From the IMG/VR virus record IMGVR_UViG_2706794677_000002: 19,859 nucleotides of DNA; one strand, 5' to 3'. The notes under the pieces are model-generated. The model ran no database searches, was not told the DNA's origin, and saw only the letters and a program-made list of their open reading frames with translations. The stretch comes from a virus (taxonomy: Duplodnaviria; Heunggongvirae; Uroviricota; Caudoviricetes). Both the position numbers and the translations under genes were made by a program. The stretch's first letter is position 1; each line of letters starts with the position of its first letter. Below are positions 1 through 19,700 of this stretch, piece after piece.

Positions 1-257
1 GGTTATCGCTCGCCACGGGAATATCTGCGGCAGCGGGCTTGTAATGGGTTAAGTGATAACAGATGTCTGGAAATATAGGGGCAAATCCAATCGTCGCCGT
101 ATTCCCGTATTAACAGAGACCGTAGCCCGACGGGGAACTCCTTCTGCGCGAGTGTGCGGGAATAATCAAAAACGATGCACACCGGGGTTACCGGGTACAC
201 ATATTTCATCATGCCAGCGAGTCCGGTTCTGGCACGGAAGAAACCGGACGTTATGAT

Positions 258-668
258 TTAGTGCGGAAATATTTGTGTAGTGTTCTGTATGTTCTCAGTA
301 AAGAGTAATGAATTATCAAAGGTATAGTAATACCTTTTGTTTTCGTGGATATTTGTAATCCATCTGAAAACCCCTGCTGTAGCAAGATTTTTCCTGTATT
401 CGTAAAATGATAACTCTCCTGATTTGAATCCTTTTAAGGTGGCTTCTATAAGGCATTTATTTTTTGAAAATCTTACATTTACAACCTTACCCTGTCCTTT
501 TATTAAAACCGTATTATCGTTTTCAAGAACAAGATGAATATTCTCTGTGGCTAAATAGTAAATGTAATGTGAGACATTGTGACGTTTTAGTTCAGAATAA
601 AACCAGTGATAGTTTAAATTATTTCGCACTTTATCGAATATTTGTTTAAAAATGGCAACCTGAGCCAT
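258..668 (-). CDS. hypothetical protein, about 136 aa, in an AT-rich moron block; function unknown
   Basis: Longest minus-strand ORF in a visibly AT-rich stretch. The ATG at 668 has a GGAAGG Shine-Dalgarno-like motif 7 nt upstream; the alternative ATG at 683 has none. Stop TAA at 258-260. Sits 57 nt downstream of, and co-oriented with, the orf64-like gene. No motif I recognise; protein is rich in Tyr/Phe/Asn/Lys. Confidence 0.55.
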
Positions 669-725
669 TGTAGTACCTTCCATGTGATATGAGGGGGCGT
701 AGTCTGCACGATTATCTAAATTGCT

Positions 726-959
726 TCAATCTGGTCTAACCTGTTTTCTGAGCAATTCAGTAATGTCACTCTTTTCTTTGTTTGCTTCAGGCGAAACTCT
801 TTTTTCTGAGCACAGTCTCCGGCGGCAGGCTTCAATGACCCAGGCTGAGAAATTCCCGGACCCTTTTTGAACAAGAGCGATGTTAATTTGTTCAATCATT
901 TGGTTAGGAAAGCGGATGTTGCGGGTTGTTGTTCTGCGGGTTCTGTTCTTCGTTGACAT
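726..959 (-). CDS. small right-end protein, homolog of lambda orf64 (YlcI-like), with a divergent C-terminal tail
   Basis: 77-aa minus-strand ORF. The first ~52 residues (MSTKNRTRRTTTRNIRFPNQMIEQINIAL.QKGSGNFSAWVIEACRRRL) match the small ORF next to cos at the lambda right end as I recall it; the last ~25 residues differ. ATG at 957-959, stop TGA at 726-728. Confidence 0.7.
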   Translation of the reverse strand: MSTKNRTRRTTTRNIRFPNQMIEQINIALVQKGSGNFSAWVIEACRRRLCSEKRVSPEANKEKSDITELLRKQVRPD

Positions 960-1158
960 GAGGTTGCCCTGTATTCAGTGTCGCTGATTTGTATTGTCTG
1001 AAGTTGTTTTTACGTTAAGTTGATGCAGATCAATTAATACGATACCTGCGTCATAATTGATTATTTGACGTGGTTTGATGGCGTAGATGCACGTTGTGAC
1101 ATGTAGATGATAATTATTATCATTTTGCGGGTCCTTTCCGGCGATCCGACAGGTTACG

Positions 1159-1170
1159 GGGCGGAAGGCG
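1159..1170 (+). other. cosN: cosN core corresponding to the 12-nt cohesive end; sequence GGGCGGAAGGCG where lambda has GGGCGGCGACCT
   Basis: Placed by alignment of the conserved flanks: ACAGGTTACG on the left, CGCGGGTTTTCG on the right. Confidence 0.65.
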
Positions 1171-1269
1171 CGCGGGTTTTCGCTATTTATGACAATTTTC
1201 CGGTTTAAGGCGTTTCCGTTCTTCTTCGCCGTAACCTAATGTTTTTATTTAAAACACCCCCTGAAAAGA

Positions 1270-1320
1270 AAGGAAACGACAGGTGCTGAAAACGGGCTTT
1301 TTGGCCTCTGTCGTTTCCTT
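1270..1320. repeat. inverted repeat AAGGAAACGACAG ... CTGTCGTTTCCTT, equivalent to the lambda cosB R2 and R1 gpNu1-binding sites
   Basis: Perfect 13-nt inverted repeat (1270-1282 and 1308-1320) directly visible; a third CGTTTCC copy (R3-like) lies at 1211-1217. Confidence 0.8.
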
Positions 1321-1347
1321 TCTCTGTTTTTGTCCGTGGAATGAACA

Positions 1348-1867
1348 ATGGAAGTCAACAAAAAGCAGCTGGCTGACATTTTCGGTGCGAGTATCCGTAC
1401 CATTCAGAACTGGCAGGAACAGGGAATGCCCGTTCTGCGAGGCGGTGGCAAGGGTAATGAGGTGCTTTATGACTCTGCCGCCGTTATAAGATGGTATGCC
1501 GAAAGGGATGCTGAAATTGAGAACGAAAAGCTGCGCCGGGAAGTTGAAGAACTGCGGCAGGCCAGCGAGACAGATCTCCAGCCAGGGACTATTGAGTACG
1601 AACGCCATCGACTTACGCGTGCGCAGGCCGACGCACAGGAGCTGAAAAATGCCAGAGACTCCGCTGAAGTGGTGGAAACCGCATTCTGTACTTTCGTGCT
1701 GTCGCGGATCGCAGGTGAAATTGCCAGTATTCTCGACGGGATCCCCCTGTCGGTGCAGCGGCGTTTTCCGGAACTGGAAAACCGACATGTTGATTTCCTG
1801 AAACGGGATATCATCAAAGCCATGAACAAAGCAGCCGCGCTGGATGAACTGATACCGGGGTTGCTGA

Positions 1868-1893: not shown

Positions 1894-5606
<3,713 letters not shown>

Positions 5607-14618: not shown

Positions 14619-15316
14619 TGCAGGATATCCGGCAGGAAACACTGAATGAATGCACCCGTGCGGAGCAGTCGGCCAGCGTGGTGCTCTGGGAAATCGATCT
14701 GACAGAGGTCGGTGGAGAACGTTATTTTTTCTGTAATGAGCAGAACGAAAAAGGTGAGCCGGTCACCTGGCAGGGGCGACAGTATCAGCCGTATCCCATT
14801 CAGGGGAGTGGTTTTGAACTGAATGGCAAAGGCACCAGTACGCGCCCCACGCTGATGGTTTCTAACCTGTACGGTATGGTCACCGGGATGGCGGAAGATC
14901 TACAGAGTCTGGTCGGCGGAACGGTGGTCCGGCGTAAGGTTTACGCCCGTTTTCTGGATGCGGTGAACTTCGTCAACGGAAACAGTGACGCCGATCCGGA
15001 GCAGGAGGTGATCAGCCGCTGGCGCATTGAGCAGTGCAGCGAACTGAGCGCGGTGAGTGCCTCTTTTGTACTGTCCACGCCGACGGAAACAGATGGCGCT
15101 GTTTTTCCGGGACGTATCATGCTGGCCAACACCTGCACCTGGACCTATCGCGGCGATGAGTGCGGTTATCACGGTCCGGCGGTCGCGGATGAATATGACC
15201 AGCCAACGTCCGANNNNNNNNNNNNNNNNNNNNNNNNNNNNNNNNNNNNNNNNNNNNNNNNNNNNNNNNNNNNNNNNNNNNNNNNNNNNNNNNNNNNNNN
15301 NNNNNNNNNNNNNNNN
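14618..15316 (+). CDS. L: tail tip protein gpL; the 3' end lies inside the N-masked gap, so the end coordinate is estimated from the 232-aa length of lambda L
   Basis: The first 198 aa are visible (MQDIRQETLNECTRAEQSASVVLWEIDLTEVGGERYFFCNEQNEKGEPVTWQGRQYQPY...CTWTYRGDECGYHGP...) and match lambda L; the Cys cluster of the C-terminal domain is partly masked. Confidence 0.85.
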
Positions 15317-15463
15317 NNNNNNNNNNNNNNNNNNNNNNNNNNNNNNNNNNNNNNNNNNNNNNNNNNNNNNNNNNNNNNNNNNNNNNNNNNNNNNNNNNNN
15401 NNNNNNNNNNNNNNNNNNNNNNNNNNNNNNNNNNNNNNNNNNNNNNNNNNNNNNNNNNNNNNN
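15214..15463. other. masked or unknown sequence (run of N) covering the L 3' end, the L-K intergenic region and possibly the K 5' end
   Basis: 250 consecutive N. Confidence 1.
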
Positions 15464-16710: not shown

Positions 16711-19700
16711 ATGGGTAAAGGCAGCAGTAAGGGGCATACCCCGCGCGAAGCGAAGGACAACCTGAAGTCCACGCAGCTGCTGAGTGTGATCGATGCCATC
16801 AGTGAAGGGCCGGTTGAAGGTCCGGTGGATGGATTAAAAAGCGTGCTGCTGAACAGTACGCCGGTGCTGGACAATGAGGGGAATACCAACATCTCCGGCG
16901 TCACGGTGGTGTTCCGGGCAGGTGAGCAGGAGCAGTCACCGCCGGAGGGGTTTGAATCCTCCGGCTCCGAGACGGTGCTGGGTACGGAAGTGAAATATGA
17001 CACGCCGATCACCCGGACCATCACGTCGGCAAACATTGACCGACTGCGTTTTACCTTCGGTGTACAGGCACTGGTGGAAACCACCTCAAAGGGAGACAGG
17101 AATCCGTCTGAAGTTCGCCTGCTGGTTCAGATACAGCGTAACGGTGGCTGGGTGACGGAAAAAGACATCACCATTAAGGGCAAAACCACCTCGCAGTATC
17201 TGGCCTCGGTGGTGGTGGATAACCTGCCGCCGCGCCCGTTTAATATCCGGATGCGCAGAATGACGCCGGACAGCACCACAGACCAGCTGCAGAACAAAAC
17301 GCTCTGGTCGTCATACACCGAAATCATCGATGTGAAACAGTGCTACCCGAACACGGCACTGGTCGGCGTACAGGTGGATTCGGAGCAGTTCGGCAGCCAG
17401 CAGGTGAGCCGTAATTATCATCTTCGCGGGCGCATTCTGCAGGTGCCGTCGAACTATAATCCGCAGACGCGGCAATACAGCGGTATCTGGGACGGAACGT
17501 TAAAACCGGCATACAGCAACAACATGGCCTGGTGTCTGTGGGATATGCTGACCCATCCGCGCTATGGCATGGGGAAACGTCTTGGTGCGGCAGATGTGGA
17601 TAAATGGGCGCTGTATGTCATCGGCCAGTACTGTGACCAGTCGGTGCCGGACGGCTTTGGCAGCACGGAGCCGCGCATCACCTGTAATGCCTGGCTGACC
17701 ACACAGCGCAAGGCGTGGGATGTGCTCAGTGATTTCTGCTCGGCGATGCGCTGTATGCCGGTATGGAACGGGCAGACGCTGACGTTCGTGCAGGACCGAC
17801 AGTCGGATAAGGTGTGGGCCTATAACCGCAGTAATGTGGTGATGCCGGATGATGGCGCGCCGTTCCGCTACAGTTTCAGCGCCCTGAAAGACCGCCATAA
17901 TGCCGTTGAGGTGAACTGGATTGACCCGGATAACGGCTGGGAGACGGCGACAGAGCTTGTGGAGGATACGCAGGCCATTGTCCGTTACGGTCGTAACGTC
18001 ACGAAGATGGATGCCTTTGGCTGTACCAGCCGGGGGCAGGCACACCGCGCCGGGCTGTGGCTGATTAAAACGGAACTGCTGGAGACGCAGACCGTGGATT
18101 TCAGCGTGGGTGCTGAAGGGCTTCGTCATGTACCGGGCGATGTCATTGAAATCTGCGATGATGACTATGCCGGTATCCGCACCGGCGGGCGCGTGCTGGC
18201 GGTGAACAGCCAGACCCGGACGCTGACGCTCGACCGTGAAATCACGCTGCCATCCTCCGGCACCACGCTGATAAGCCTGGTTGACGGGCAGGGGAATCCG
18301 GTCAGCGTGGAGGTCCAGTCCGTCACCGACGGCGTGAAGGTAAAAGTGAGCCGTGTTCCTGACGGTGTTGCTGAATACAGCGTGTGGGGGCTGAAGCTGC
18401 CGACGCTGCACCAGCGATTGTTCCGCTGCGNNNNNNNNNNNNNNNNNNNNNNNNNNNNNNNNNNNNNNNNNNNNNNNNNNNNNNNNNNNNNNNNNNNNNN
18501 NNNNNNNNNNNNNNNNNNNNNNNNNNNNNNNNNNNNNNNNNNNNNNNNNNNNNNNNNNNNNNNNNNNNNNNNNNNNNNNNNNNNNNNNNNNNNNNNNNNN
18601 NNNNNNNNNNNNNNNNNNNNNNNNNNNNNNNNNNNNNNNNNNNNNNNNNNNNNNNNNNNNNNNNNNNNNNGCTGACAGTCCGGGCAGTAAATGCGTGGGG
18701 GCAGCAGGGCGATCCGGCGTCGGTATCGTTCCGGATTGCCGCACCGGCAGCGCTGTCGCGGATTGAGCTGACGCCGGGCTATTTTCAGATAACCGCCACG
18801 CCGCATCTTGCGGTTTATGATCCGACGGTACAGTTTGAGTTCTGGTTCTCGGAAAAGCGGATTGCGGATATCAGGCAGGTTGAAACCACAGCACGCTATC
18901 TTGGCACGGCGCTGTACTGGATAGCCGCCAGTATCAATATCAAACCGGGCCATGATTATTACTTTTATATCCGCAGTGTGAACACCGTTGGCAAATCGGC
19001 ATTCGTGGAGGCTGTTGGTCAGCCGAGTGATGATGCATCCGGTTATCTGGATTTTTTCAAAGGCGAGATAGGGAAAACCCATCTGGCTCAGGAGCTGTGG
19101 ACGCAGATTGATAACGGTCAGCTTGCGCCTGACCTGGCTGAAATCAGGACGTCCATTACGGATGTCAGCAATGAAATCACGCAGACCGTCAATAAGAAAC
19201 TGGAAGACCAGAGTGCGGCAATTCAGCAGATACAGAAGGTTCAGGTTGATACAAATAATAACCTGAACAGCATGTGGGCTGTGAAGCTGCAGCAGATGCA
19301 GGACGGACGCCTTTATATCGCGGGTATTGGTGCCGGTATTGAGAACACCCCTGACGGCATGCAGAGTCAGGTGCTGCTGGCGGCGGACAGGATTGCGATG
19401 GTTAATCCTGCGAATGGCAACACAAAACCGATGTTTGTTGGTCAGGGCGATCAGATATTCATGAACGACGTGTTCCTGAAACGCCTGACGGCCCCCACCA
19501 TTACCAGCGGTGGAAATCCATCGGCATTTTCCCTGACTCCGGACGGAAAGCTGACCGCTAAAAATGCGGATATCAGTGGCAGTGTGAATGCGAACGCCGG
19601 GACGCTCAACAATGTCACGGTAAATGAAAACTGTACGATTAAGGGCATGCTGGAGGCGACTCAGGTCAGAGGTGACTTCGTTAAAGCTGTATCCAAATCA

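Follow-up and report, generated by a model that had tools for sequence, protein, structure and literature searches.

Here, we present an analysis of a gene located upstream of cos in a window of 19,859 nucleotides (the term is used throughout for the whole stretch of DNA analysed). The content of the window is that of a lambda-like phage or prophage, with a right-end accessory region (1 to ~1158), cos, Nu1 (1348-1893), and A (from 1868). The GC content of the segment 250-815 is 33.7%, compared with 55.7% for the whole window, 53.0% for the left flank (1-249), 43-44% on the right up to Nu1, and 54% in Nu1/A. The dip spans ~250 to ~700, which is essentially the extent of a minus-strand ORF at 258-668 (31.4% GC). 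This ORF starts with an ATG at 668-666, ends with a TAA at 260-258, and encodes a protein of 136 aa. Read directly from the sequence, a Shine-Dalgarno-like GGAAGG (676-681, minus strand) precedes the ATG at 668 by 7 nt; an alternative in-frame ATG (683-681), which overlaps GGAAGG, would give a 141-aa product. Both ATGs and GGAAGG are invariant in an alignment of the window with Qin, lambda, and DLP12. A second gene (726-959, minus strand) is co-oriented with the ORF, in the same frame, and 57 nt upstream of it. The AT-rich block, the minus-strand ORF with GGAAGG before its ATG, and the co-oriented neighbor at a distance of 57 nt had been described in the original prediction, and all three stand as written.

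An ATG-initiated ORF of at least 136 aa was found in none of 2000 mononucleotide shuffles of 250-815 (mean 42, maximum 108). Compared pairwise with the three alleles of lambda, DLP12, and Qin, the gene has a dN/dS of 0.21-0.35. The central codons 56-97 have values of 0.33-0.77 versus 0.07-0.29 at the ends, the ratio being below 1 everywhere, and the entropy over 67 unique E. coli-group sequences follows the same pattern, being higher in the central segment. Because dN/dS is well below 1, we conclude that the frame 258-668 is coding and, as judged from these alleles, under purifying selection. A non-coding or chance ORF at this position was also considered and is excluded by the shuffles, dN/dS, and the solved structure of a homolog described below.

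The upstream gene at 726-959 (stop TGA at 728-726) encodes a 77-aa YnfO-type DUF3950 protein of the YlcI/YnfO family (Pfam PF13132, E=2e-20; NCBIfam NF041551), which differs from K-12 YnfO at two residues. The ynfO-ydfO pair in Qin matches this arrangement; based on the K-12 annotation, the Qin-type geometry is identical to the base, with ynfO of 234 bp, 57 nt, ydfO of 411 bp, cos, and nohA. The ylcI-type versions in lambda and DLP12 are 64 aa in length and have a different C-terminal tail.

The ORF at 258-668 is preceded by a leader/regulatory region of ~75 nt (669-745, minus strand), which is conserved from a PdhR-box-like sequence (729-745; core TGGTCTAACC at 732-741) to the ATG. This leader contains a sigma-70-like site (minus strand; -35 TAGACC at 738-733 and -10 GATAAT at 716-711) with a score of 9/12; the sigma-70-like matches are weak, with 4 sites versus 2.5 expected in shuffles, and the -10/-35 spacing in the lambda copy would be 19 nt. 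When the upstream regions of the four copies (window, Qin, lambda, and DLP12) are aligned, this conservation extends across the Qin-type and lambda/DLP12-type layouts alike; beyond the leader, the two layouts have unrelated sequence, and the junction falls exactly at the leader's upstream edge. It follows that the gene brings a leader of its own irrespective of its upstream neighbor. At the other end, no terminator-like site was found after the ORF, and the stability of the hairpin at 221-250 does not exceed that of shuffles (z=-0.57).

The sequence 3' of the ORF (90-257, minus strand) is part of the same conserved module and comprises most of a small ORF, which is annotated in the phages ev099 and PhiR49_1 and is truncated here by IS2 at 89/90. 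Positions 1-89 (plus strand) are the end of this IS2 and include the InsD C-terminus and the terminal inverted repeat. L042, a 100% match to the window, has a complete IS2 copy of 1331 bp, which is flanked by the 5-bp direct repeat ACGAT. IS2 is not in PhiR49_1. For ~78 of 80 IMG/VR loci, homology starts exactly at position 90, and this sharp stop at 89/90 is explained by window 1-89 being the IS2 end.

Family assignment and relation to lambda, DLP12, and Qin

The 136-aa protein matches the Pfam family PF07166 (DUF1398) over the full profile (1-119 of 119) with 147 bits versus a gathering cut-off of 22 (E=3.3e-43). A further match is to PHROG 413 (label 'head protein'); no NCBIfam family matched. 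At the protein level, it is 75.7% identical to lambda lambdap78 (NP_597781), 77.2% to DLP12 YbcV, and 75.0% to Qin YdfO, and the differences from lambdap78/YbcV fall mostly in residues 58-97. Judged by these identities, the protein represents a third allele group that is no closer to YdfO than to YbcV. We are almost certain that window 258-668 is a lambdoid DUF1398 gene, i.e., an ortholog of lambdap78, DLP12 ybcV, and Qin ydfO, in its usual place in the interval from the lysis cassette to cos, with transcription antisense to the late operon. The original prediction had tentatively suggested a DUF1398/YbcV-type protein, and the full-length PF07166 match, obtained in the profile search that it had itself proposed, proves this guess exactly correct. 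Its description of the ORF as unknown is not correct: the names 'DUF1398 domain-containing protein' and 'YlcI/YnfO family protein' are already in use in PGAP annotation, the gene being named in thousands of genomes, and a homolog has a solved structure (PDB 2HH8). The match to a conserved lambda-family gene is also the outcome that the original prediction had named as speaking against it, and the gene is indeed conserved, though functionally uncharacterised.

Using blastn, we found that window 89-742 aligns with lambda(DE3) (L001 1501-2153) at 82.6% identity, and that window 797-1400 aligns with L001 2767-3370 at 94.9% and is collinear with the first match. DNA homology to lambda is, therefore, continuous through 89-742, contrary to the earlier suggestion that the AT-rich block interrupts the lambda-like sequence. 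Rather, the true interruption in this region is IS2. The main structural difference from lambda is the absence of ~560 bp carrying lambdap79/ybcW: the junction segment between the Qin-type and lambda layouts (743-796) is 54 nt long where, based on blastn, lambda has ~613 nt with lambdap79/ybcW and the ylcI tail, and no lambdap79 homolog was found anywhere in the window. Lambda has been reported to escape the Vulcan defence by recombining with Qin and deleting lambdap79 (bioRxiv 10.64898/2026.09.04.749371). We note that this recombination yields exactly the layout of the window.

These comparisons bear on the possibility that a foreign AT-rich moron with a novel ORF replaced the usual lambda gene and brought exclusion or defence cargo with it. 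The block is AT-rich, and the region adjoining cos varies among lambda-like phages, as such an event would predict. However, lambda, DLP12, and Qin share the gene, its place, its strand, and its GC content, with 75-77% protein identity; the GC content is 32.6% for lambdap78 and 31.6% each for ybcV and ydfO. Because AT-richness is shared by the four alleles (31-33% GC), it is no mark of a recent insertion here, and low GC is an old trait of the whole DUF1398 gene family, the lambda copy included. In addition, lambda homology runs through 89-742, the absence of lambdap79 is the only structural difference, and the protein has no match among the PADLOC defence models. A foreign replacement is refuted by the lambda alignment, and we consider it extremely improbable. 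Nor is there a cassette replacement of the kind that had been proposed: lambda, too, carries lambdap78 here, in the same orientation, encoding a protein 75.7% identical to the one described above. The small opposite-strand lambda gene invoked in that proposal does exist (lambdap79, ybcW-like), but it lies between lambdap78 and the ylcI-like ORF and not in the place of the DUF1398 gene.

Distribution of the gene and its link to the YnfO-type neighbor

In IMG/VR, at least 80 viral contigs encode a protein identical over all 136 aa, and relatives are present in 373 contigs. Among 5426 complete E. coli genomes, 5376 contain DNA related to the ORF, a count that includes the chromosomal paralog ycgX; 1063 records in this search have a copy that is at least 99% identical, and at least 80% of window 1-1400 is present in one place in 2446 of the 5426 genomes. 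DUF1398 genes are also retained in cryptic prophages, besides the chromosomal paralog ycgX. Within phages, the gene is tightly linked to cos and Nu1. To count presence and absence at the same site, we used contigs with the variant cosN and a left flank of at least 1.3 kb. The DUF1398 gene is absent from ~50 of these ~61 lambda-like contigs with the same cos and present in ~8. Three contigs have a YnfO-like gene without DUF1398. Since only some of the same-cos contigs have it, the DUF1398 gene acts as an optional cassette in phages, and the label 'accessory, moron-like' is fair. The same variation bears out the earlier suggestion that accessory genes vary in the stretch from the lysis genes to cos. 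As for the features expected of a moron, the gene has a distinct base composition (31.4% GC versus 55.7%) and is present or absent at the same site in close relatives; where a moron would have its own promoter and terminator, we found the conserved ~75-nt leader with its weak sigma-70-like site and no terminator-like site, the post-stop hairpin having z=-0.57.

Distant DUF1398 genes occur in Kluyvera, Klebsiella, Salmonella diarizonae, Raoultella, Epilithonimonas/Chryseobacterium, and Streptococcus suis. The Bacteroidota copies are located in a stable, conserved, non-phage housekeeping neighborhood, and the Kluyvera copies are found near a GGDEF protein. At 44 distant DUF1398 loci, neither DUF3950 nor Nu1 was found within 5 kb, and the genomic context of 48 distant homologs revealed no recurrent functional partner. 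Because these distant genes have no DUF3950 or terminase genes nearby, the DUF1398 domain works on its own.

Could the YnfO-like and DUF1398 proteins nevertheless form a two-gene module, either toxin-antitoxin-like or a regulator with its effector, in which YnfO represses the operon and neutralises or controls the DUF1398 protein? The two genes are co-oriented, in the same frame, and 57 nt apart in the window and in Qin, and they are co-inherited beside cos. Moreover, at the N-terminus of the YnfO-type protein, RNIRFP precedes two helices, which in our reading of the sequence is reminiscent of a ribbon-helix-helix motif, and we presume that the protein may be a ribbon-helix-helix DNA binder. 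This fold receives no backing from structural data: a single-sequence AF2 model has helices at 19-31 and 37-50 at low confidence (pLDDT 55), and no sequence match to the YnfO-like protein was found in the PDB. The genomic evidence also argues against a module. In lambda and DLP12, the two genes are ~600 bp apart with an opposite-strand gene between them, the DUF1398 gene retains its own conserved leader, DUF3950 is lacking within 5 kb of the 44 distant DUF1398 genes, and the three contigs mentioned above have the YnfO-like gene on its own. Thus, the obligate adjacency or co-occurrence of a type II toxin-antitoxin system is not observed in lambda, in DLP12, or at the 44 distant loci. A ybcV::kan mutant from the Keio collection has been made and used (PMC3945230), and the expression studies consulted mention no toxicity. 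Altogether, we regard a two-gene module as quite improbable. Database clusters of apparent DUF3950-DUF1398 fusion proteins (P0014, 233 aa, 761 members; P0010) were examined separately and rejected as artefacts, because the L134 DNA has an in-frame TGA that was read as Trp by the gene caller; these proteins, therefore, do not speak for a module either.

Protein features and candidate functions

The solution NMR structure of YdfO (PDB 2HH8), a soluble protein, is that of a homolog with 75% identity to the protein encoded in the window (phmmer E=2.9e-67). The YdfO fold is a tandem duplication of a two-helix, three-strand (alpha2-beta3) unit, and the protein conforms to it. The family motif Y-x-[YH]-[FY]-[LV]-[AS]-T-x-N is present at residues 34-43, and the family motif [AS]-G-[VI]-[FYA]-[KR]-W is present as AGVFRW at residues 98-103. 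L27, T41, G84, Y35, N43, G99, and the K/R-W pair are invariant or nearly so across distant homologs. No catalytic constellation, i.e., an acid/base or nucleophile set, was found among the family-invariant residues L, T, G, N, Y, and W. The protein has a mass of 16 kDa, a pI of 9.4, a net charge of +6, and a GRAVY of -0.41, and is soluble and hydrophilic. It has no transmembrane segment (maximum Kyte-Doolittle 19-residue mean 0.39), and inspection of the N-terminus revealed no export signal, signal peptide, or lipobox. The original prediction had recognised neither a transmembrane segment, a signal peptide, nor a catalytic motif, in agreement with the hydropathy maximum and the invariant residues. 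Among PDB and viral folds, no informative fold neighbor was found except YdfO itself.

A structural or packaging role, as implied by the database labels 'head protein' (PHROG 413, RefSeq) and 'putative envelope protein', was also considered, as was an accessory function in packaging linked to cos. Besides the labels, the tight linkage of the gene to cos and Nu1 speaks in favor of such a role. In a genome-wide CRISPRi analysis of lambda, however, knock-down of lambdap78 gave plating efficiencies of 1.9 and 1.3, with no effect on plaque formation, and the gene scored as non-essential (PMC10695390), which argues against the 'head protein' label. Similarly, the 'envelope protein' label is contradicted by a basic, hydrophilic protein that lacks a signal peptide and a membrane segment. 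Moreover, the gene lies on the strand antisense to the late operon, homologs are found outside prophages, and there are many lambda-like contigs in which cos and Nu1 are the same but the gene is missing. The linkage to cos is explained by cos-stimulated recombination, which moves the whole end region (PMC3945230). A structural or packaging function is, therefore, very improbable, and the 'head protein' and 'envelope protein' labels that are propagating in phage databases are unsupported.

Alternatively, the DUF1398 protein could be involved in conflict between phage and host or among phages, whether by providing defence, by countering it, or by being sensed by a defence system; exclusion, defence, and anti-defence had been named in the original prediction as common functions of such cargo. 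The gene occupies an accessory hotspot with bor-type genes close by, and only some of the related phages carry it; its central codons 56-97 evolve faster and have higher entropy; and its immediate neighbor in lambda, lambdap79, has been reported as the activator of the Vulcan NADase defence (bioRxiv 10.64898/2026.09.04.749371). Because lambdap79 was reported (September 2026) as the trigger of an NADase defence, the difference between the lambda-type and Qin-type layouts gains a possible selective meaning. On the other hand, the DUF1398 protein had no significant match among the PADLOC-DB defence models (the best was Csx23, E=0.025, 12.6 bits) and no fold similarity to known defence or anti-defence proteins. 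Also arguing against conflict, dN/dS is below 1 everywhere, the Bacteroidota homologs reside in stable, non-phage chromosomal neighborhoods, and no phenotype has been published. On balance, a role in conflict is unlikely. In its most specific version, which we hold to be distinctly unlikely, DUF1398 would be a conflict player (an exclusion factor, a counter-defence protein, or a decoy/sensed protein) with the faster-evolving central helices (residues ~58-97) as the interaction surface, and the lambdap79-less Qin-type layout would be a selected escape configuration and not a neutral indel.

Expression, proposed explanation, and known systems

In the literature searched, DUF1398, ybcV, ydfO, ycgX, and lambdap78 appear only in expression or catalogue mentions, with no direct functional datum for any member, and a 2025 survey could draw no inference for ycgX (PMC12356324). 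In K-12, PdhR genomic-SELEX peaks are located at ybcV/ybcW and ynfO-ydfO, and ybcV mRNA is 10-fold lower in a pdhR deletion (PMC7660256). Expression of ybcV/ybcW increases >1000-fold when T4 MotB perturbs H-NS repression (PMC7827196); this rise may instead stem from DE3 prophage induction and not from relief of H-NS repression. According to published transcript data, ybcV is also upregulated in sabinene-adapted cells. After exposure to an ionic liquid, ydfO mRNA increases ~100-fold as measured by qPCR, and the same study states that over-expression of YdfO raises oxidative-stress resistance (PMC4077768), a claim that we set aside. Altogether, the K-12 transcript data are compatible with a xenogeneic gene that is normally expressed at a low level and conditionally de-repressed. 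As for the oxidative-stress statement, we assume that it may confuse YdfO with YfdO of CPS-53.

The explanation that a lambdoid DUF1398 gene is present here as an accessory unit is, in our judgment, highly likely overall. How this unit functions is a more tentative matter: we suggest, at somewhat less than even confidence, that the gene is an autonomous, prophage-borne accessory unit, dispensable for lambda, and that its product is a small cytoplasmic binding protein acting in the lysogen or under stress. According to this model, the ~75-nt leader with its sigma-70-like promoter and PdhR-box-like site travels with the gene and would direct its transcription. In the prophage, the AT-rich DNA would probably be held at low expression by xenogeneic silencing and be de-repressed on stress or induction. 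The product is predicted to be a soluble, basic cytoplasmic protein with the YdfO fold, and would bind a macromolecule, either a protein of host or phage or a nucleic acid, rather than catalyse a reaction, because the invariant residues L, T, G, N, Y, and W do not include an acid/base or nucleophile set. The idea of a binding protein, thus, derives from negative evidence, i.e., absent catalytic residues and absent fold neighbors. In this model, the benefit probably goes to the lysogen rather than to lytic growth.

The gene in the window and its Qin-type arrangement are already known and annotated, and the structure of a homolog is solved. Nevertheless, DUF1398 is among the few lambda genes without a known function, yet it is present in about half of E. 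coli genomes, and any phenotype would be broadly relevant.

Compared with known morons, the DUF1398 gene shares with bor and lom a position in an accessory region, AT-richness, an orientation opposite to late transcription, and dispensability for plaque formation. However, known phenotypes are associated with Bor and Lom, both of which are envelope proteins, while the DUF1398 protein has no export signal. Lambda lambdap78 and DLP12 YbcV, which are near-identical to each other, share with the gene in the window the family, the length of 136 aa, the position, the strand, ~32% GC, and the GGAAGG leader. The surroundings differ: in lambda and DLP12, bor is located downstream, and lambdap79/ybcW lies between the DUF1398 gene and the ylcI-like gene, whereas the window has IS2 downstream and no lambdap79. 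Qin, the gene order of which matches that of the window, is a decayed prophage; by contrast, the module in the window adjoins an apparently complete lambda-like head gene set, of which Nu1 and A are seen. Among the phages compared, ev099 (Radostvirus; gp71) and PhiR49_1 (in which the protein is named 'YbcV') have 98.6-98.8% DNA identity over window 90-1162 and 90-1400 and share the gene order. Both differ from the window in lacking IS2 at 89/90, and PhiR49_1 has the canonical lambda cosN, while the window carries a variant cosN.

IS2, the cohesive end and masked bases

The left end of the window is formed by an IS2 element, of which the C-terminus of InsD and the terminal inverted repeat are present (1-89), followed by one copy of the 5-bp target duplication (90-94; ACGAT on the minus strand). 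In L042, the identical IMG/VR contig, IS2 is complete (1331 bp) and splits the small ORF that lies on the downstream side of the DUF1398 gene. Because IS2 ends there, almost all related loci lose homology precisely at position 89/90.

The window carries a variant cohesive end, GGGCGGAAGGCG, at 1159-1170, while lambda has GGGCGGCGACCT. The two differ at 5 of the 12 bases, all within positions 7-12, and the flanks are otherwise identical. We found the variant in 78 IMG/VR contigs and also in PhiR46_1, a deposited phage genome with E. coli ECOR13 as the listed host; the canonical end is present in over 60 further loci retrieved for comparison, among them those of lambda, Qin, DLP12 and PhiR49_1. 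Parts of the window are hidden by three runs of N (3152-3431, 15214-15463 and 18431-18670; 770 bases altogether), the first of which falls within gene A for the large subunit of terminase.

Annotation of the DUF1398 family

The ynfO-like gene (726-959, minus strand) and the DUF1398 gene (258-668, minus strand) share one reading frame and are separated by a single TGA (726-728; 1505-1507 in the compared locus L134) and 57 nt. In the large protein-database clusters P0014 (233 aa; 761 members) and P0010, the two ORFs appear as one fusion protein. We rejected this fusion as an annotation artefact, which arose because the gene caller translated TGA as Trp; users of such annotations should watch for entries of this type.

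The family of the DUF1398 protein is labeled "head protein" in PHROG 413 and RefSeq phage records, and "putative envelope protein" in lambda-type GenBank records. Neither label suits the protein because it is non-essential, soluble, cytoplasmic and encoded antisense to the late operon. For the ortholog YdfO of Qin, overexpression has been stated to increase resistance to oxidative stress (PMC4077768). This may be a mix-up of names, as the study of cryptic prophages cited there reportedly concerns YfdO of prophage CPS-53, and the statement was left out of the evidence.

DUF1398 paralogs outside phages

DUF1398 paralogs are also found outside phages in Kluyvera (L087-L091 and L103) and in Epilithonimonas/Chryseobacterium (L110-L130). 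The Kluyvera paralogs have as neighbours a GGDEF membrane protein and a small ORF of 74-139 aa, a setting reminiscent of E. coli ycgX, which adjoins the bluR-bluF region. The Bacteroidota paralogs lie inside a conserved block with ORFs that, judged by eye only, are of housekeeping type, e.g., metallophosphoesterase-like and pyridoxamine-phosphate-oxidase-like. From these Kluyvera and Bacteroidota neighbourhoods, no functional link could be drawn.

Lack of lambdap79 and the Vulcan defence

The window has no counterpart of the lambda gene lambdap79/ybcW; the junction where it is missing is at 743-796, corresponding to 2154-2766 of the lambda(DE3) locus. According to a 2026 preprint, the Vulcan NADase defence is activated by lambdap79, which lambda escapers lost through recombination with Qin (bioRxiv 10.64898/2026.09.04.749371). 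Natural phages of the Qin type, such as that of the window, would be predicted to evade Vulcan; the recombination in the lambda escapers gives the same layout as that of the window.
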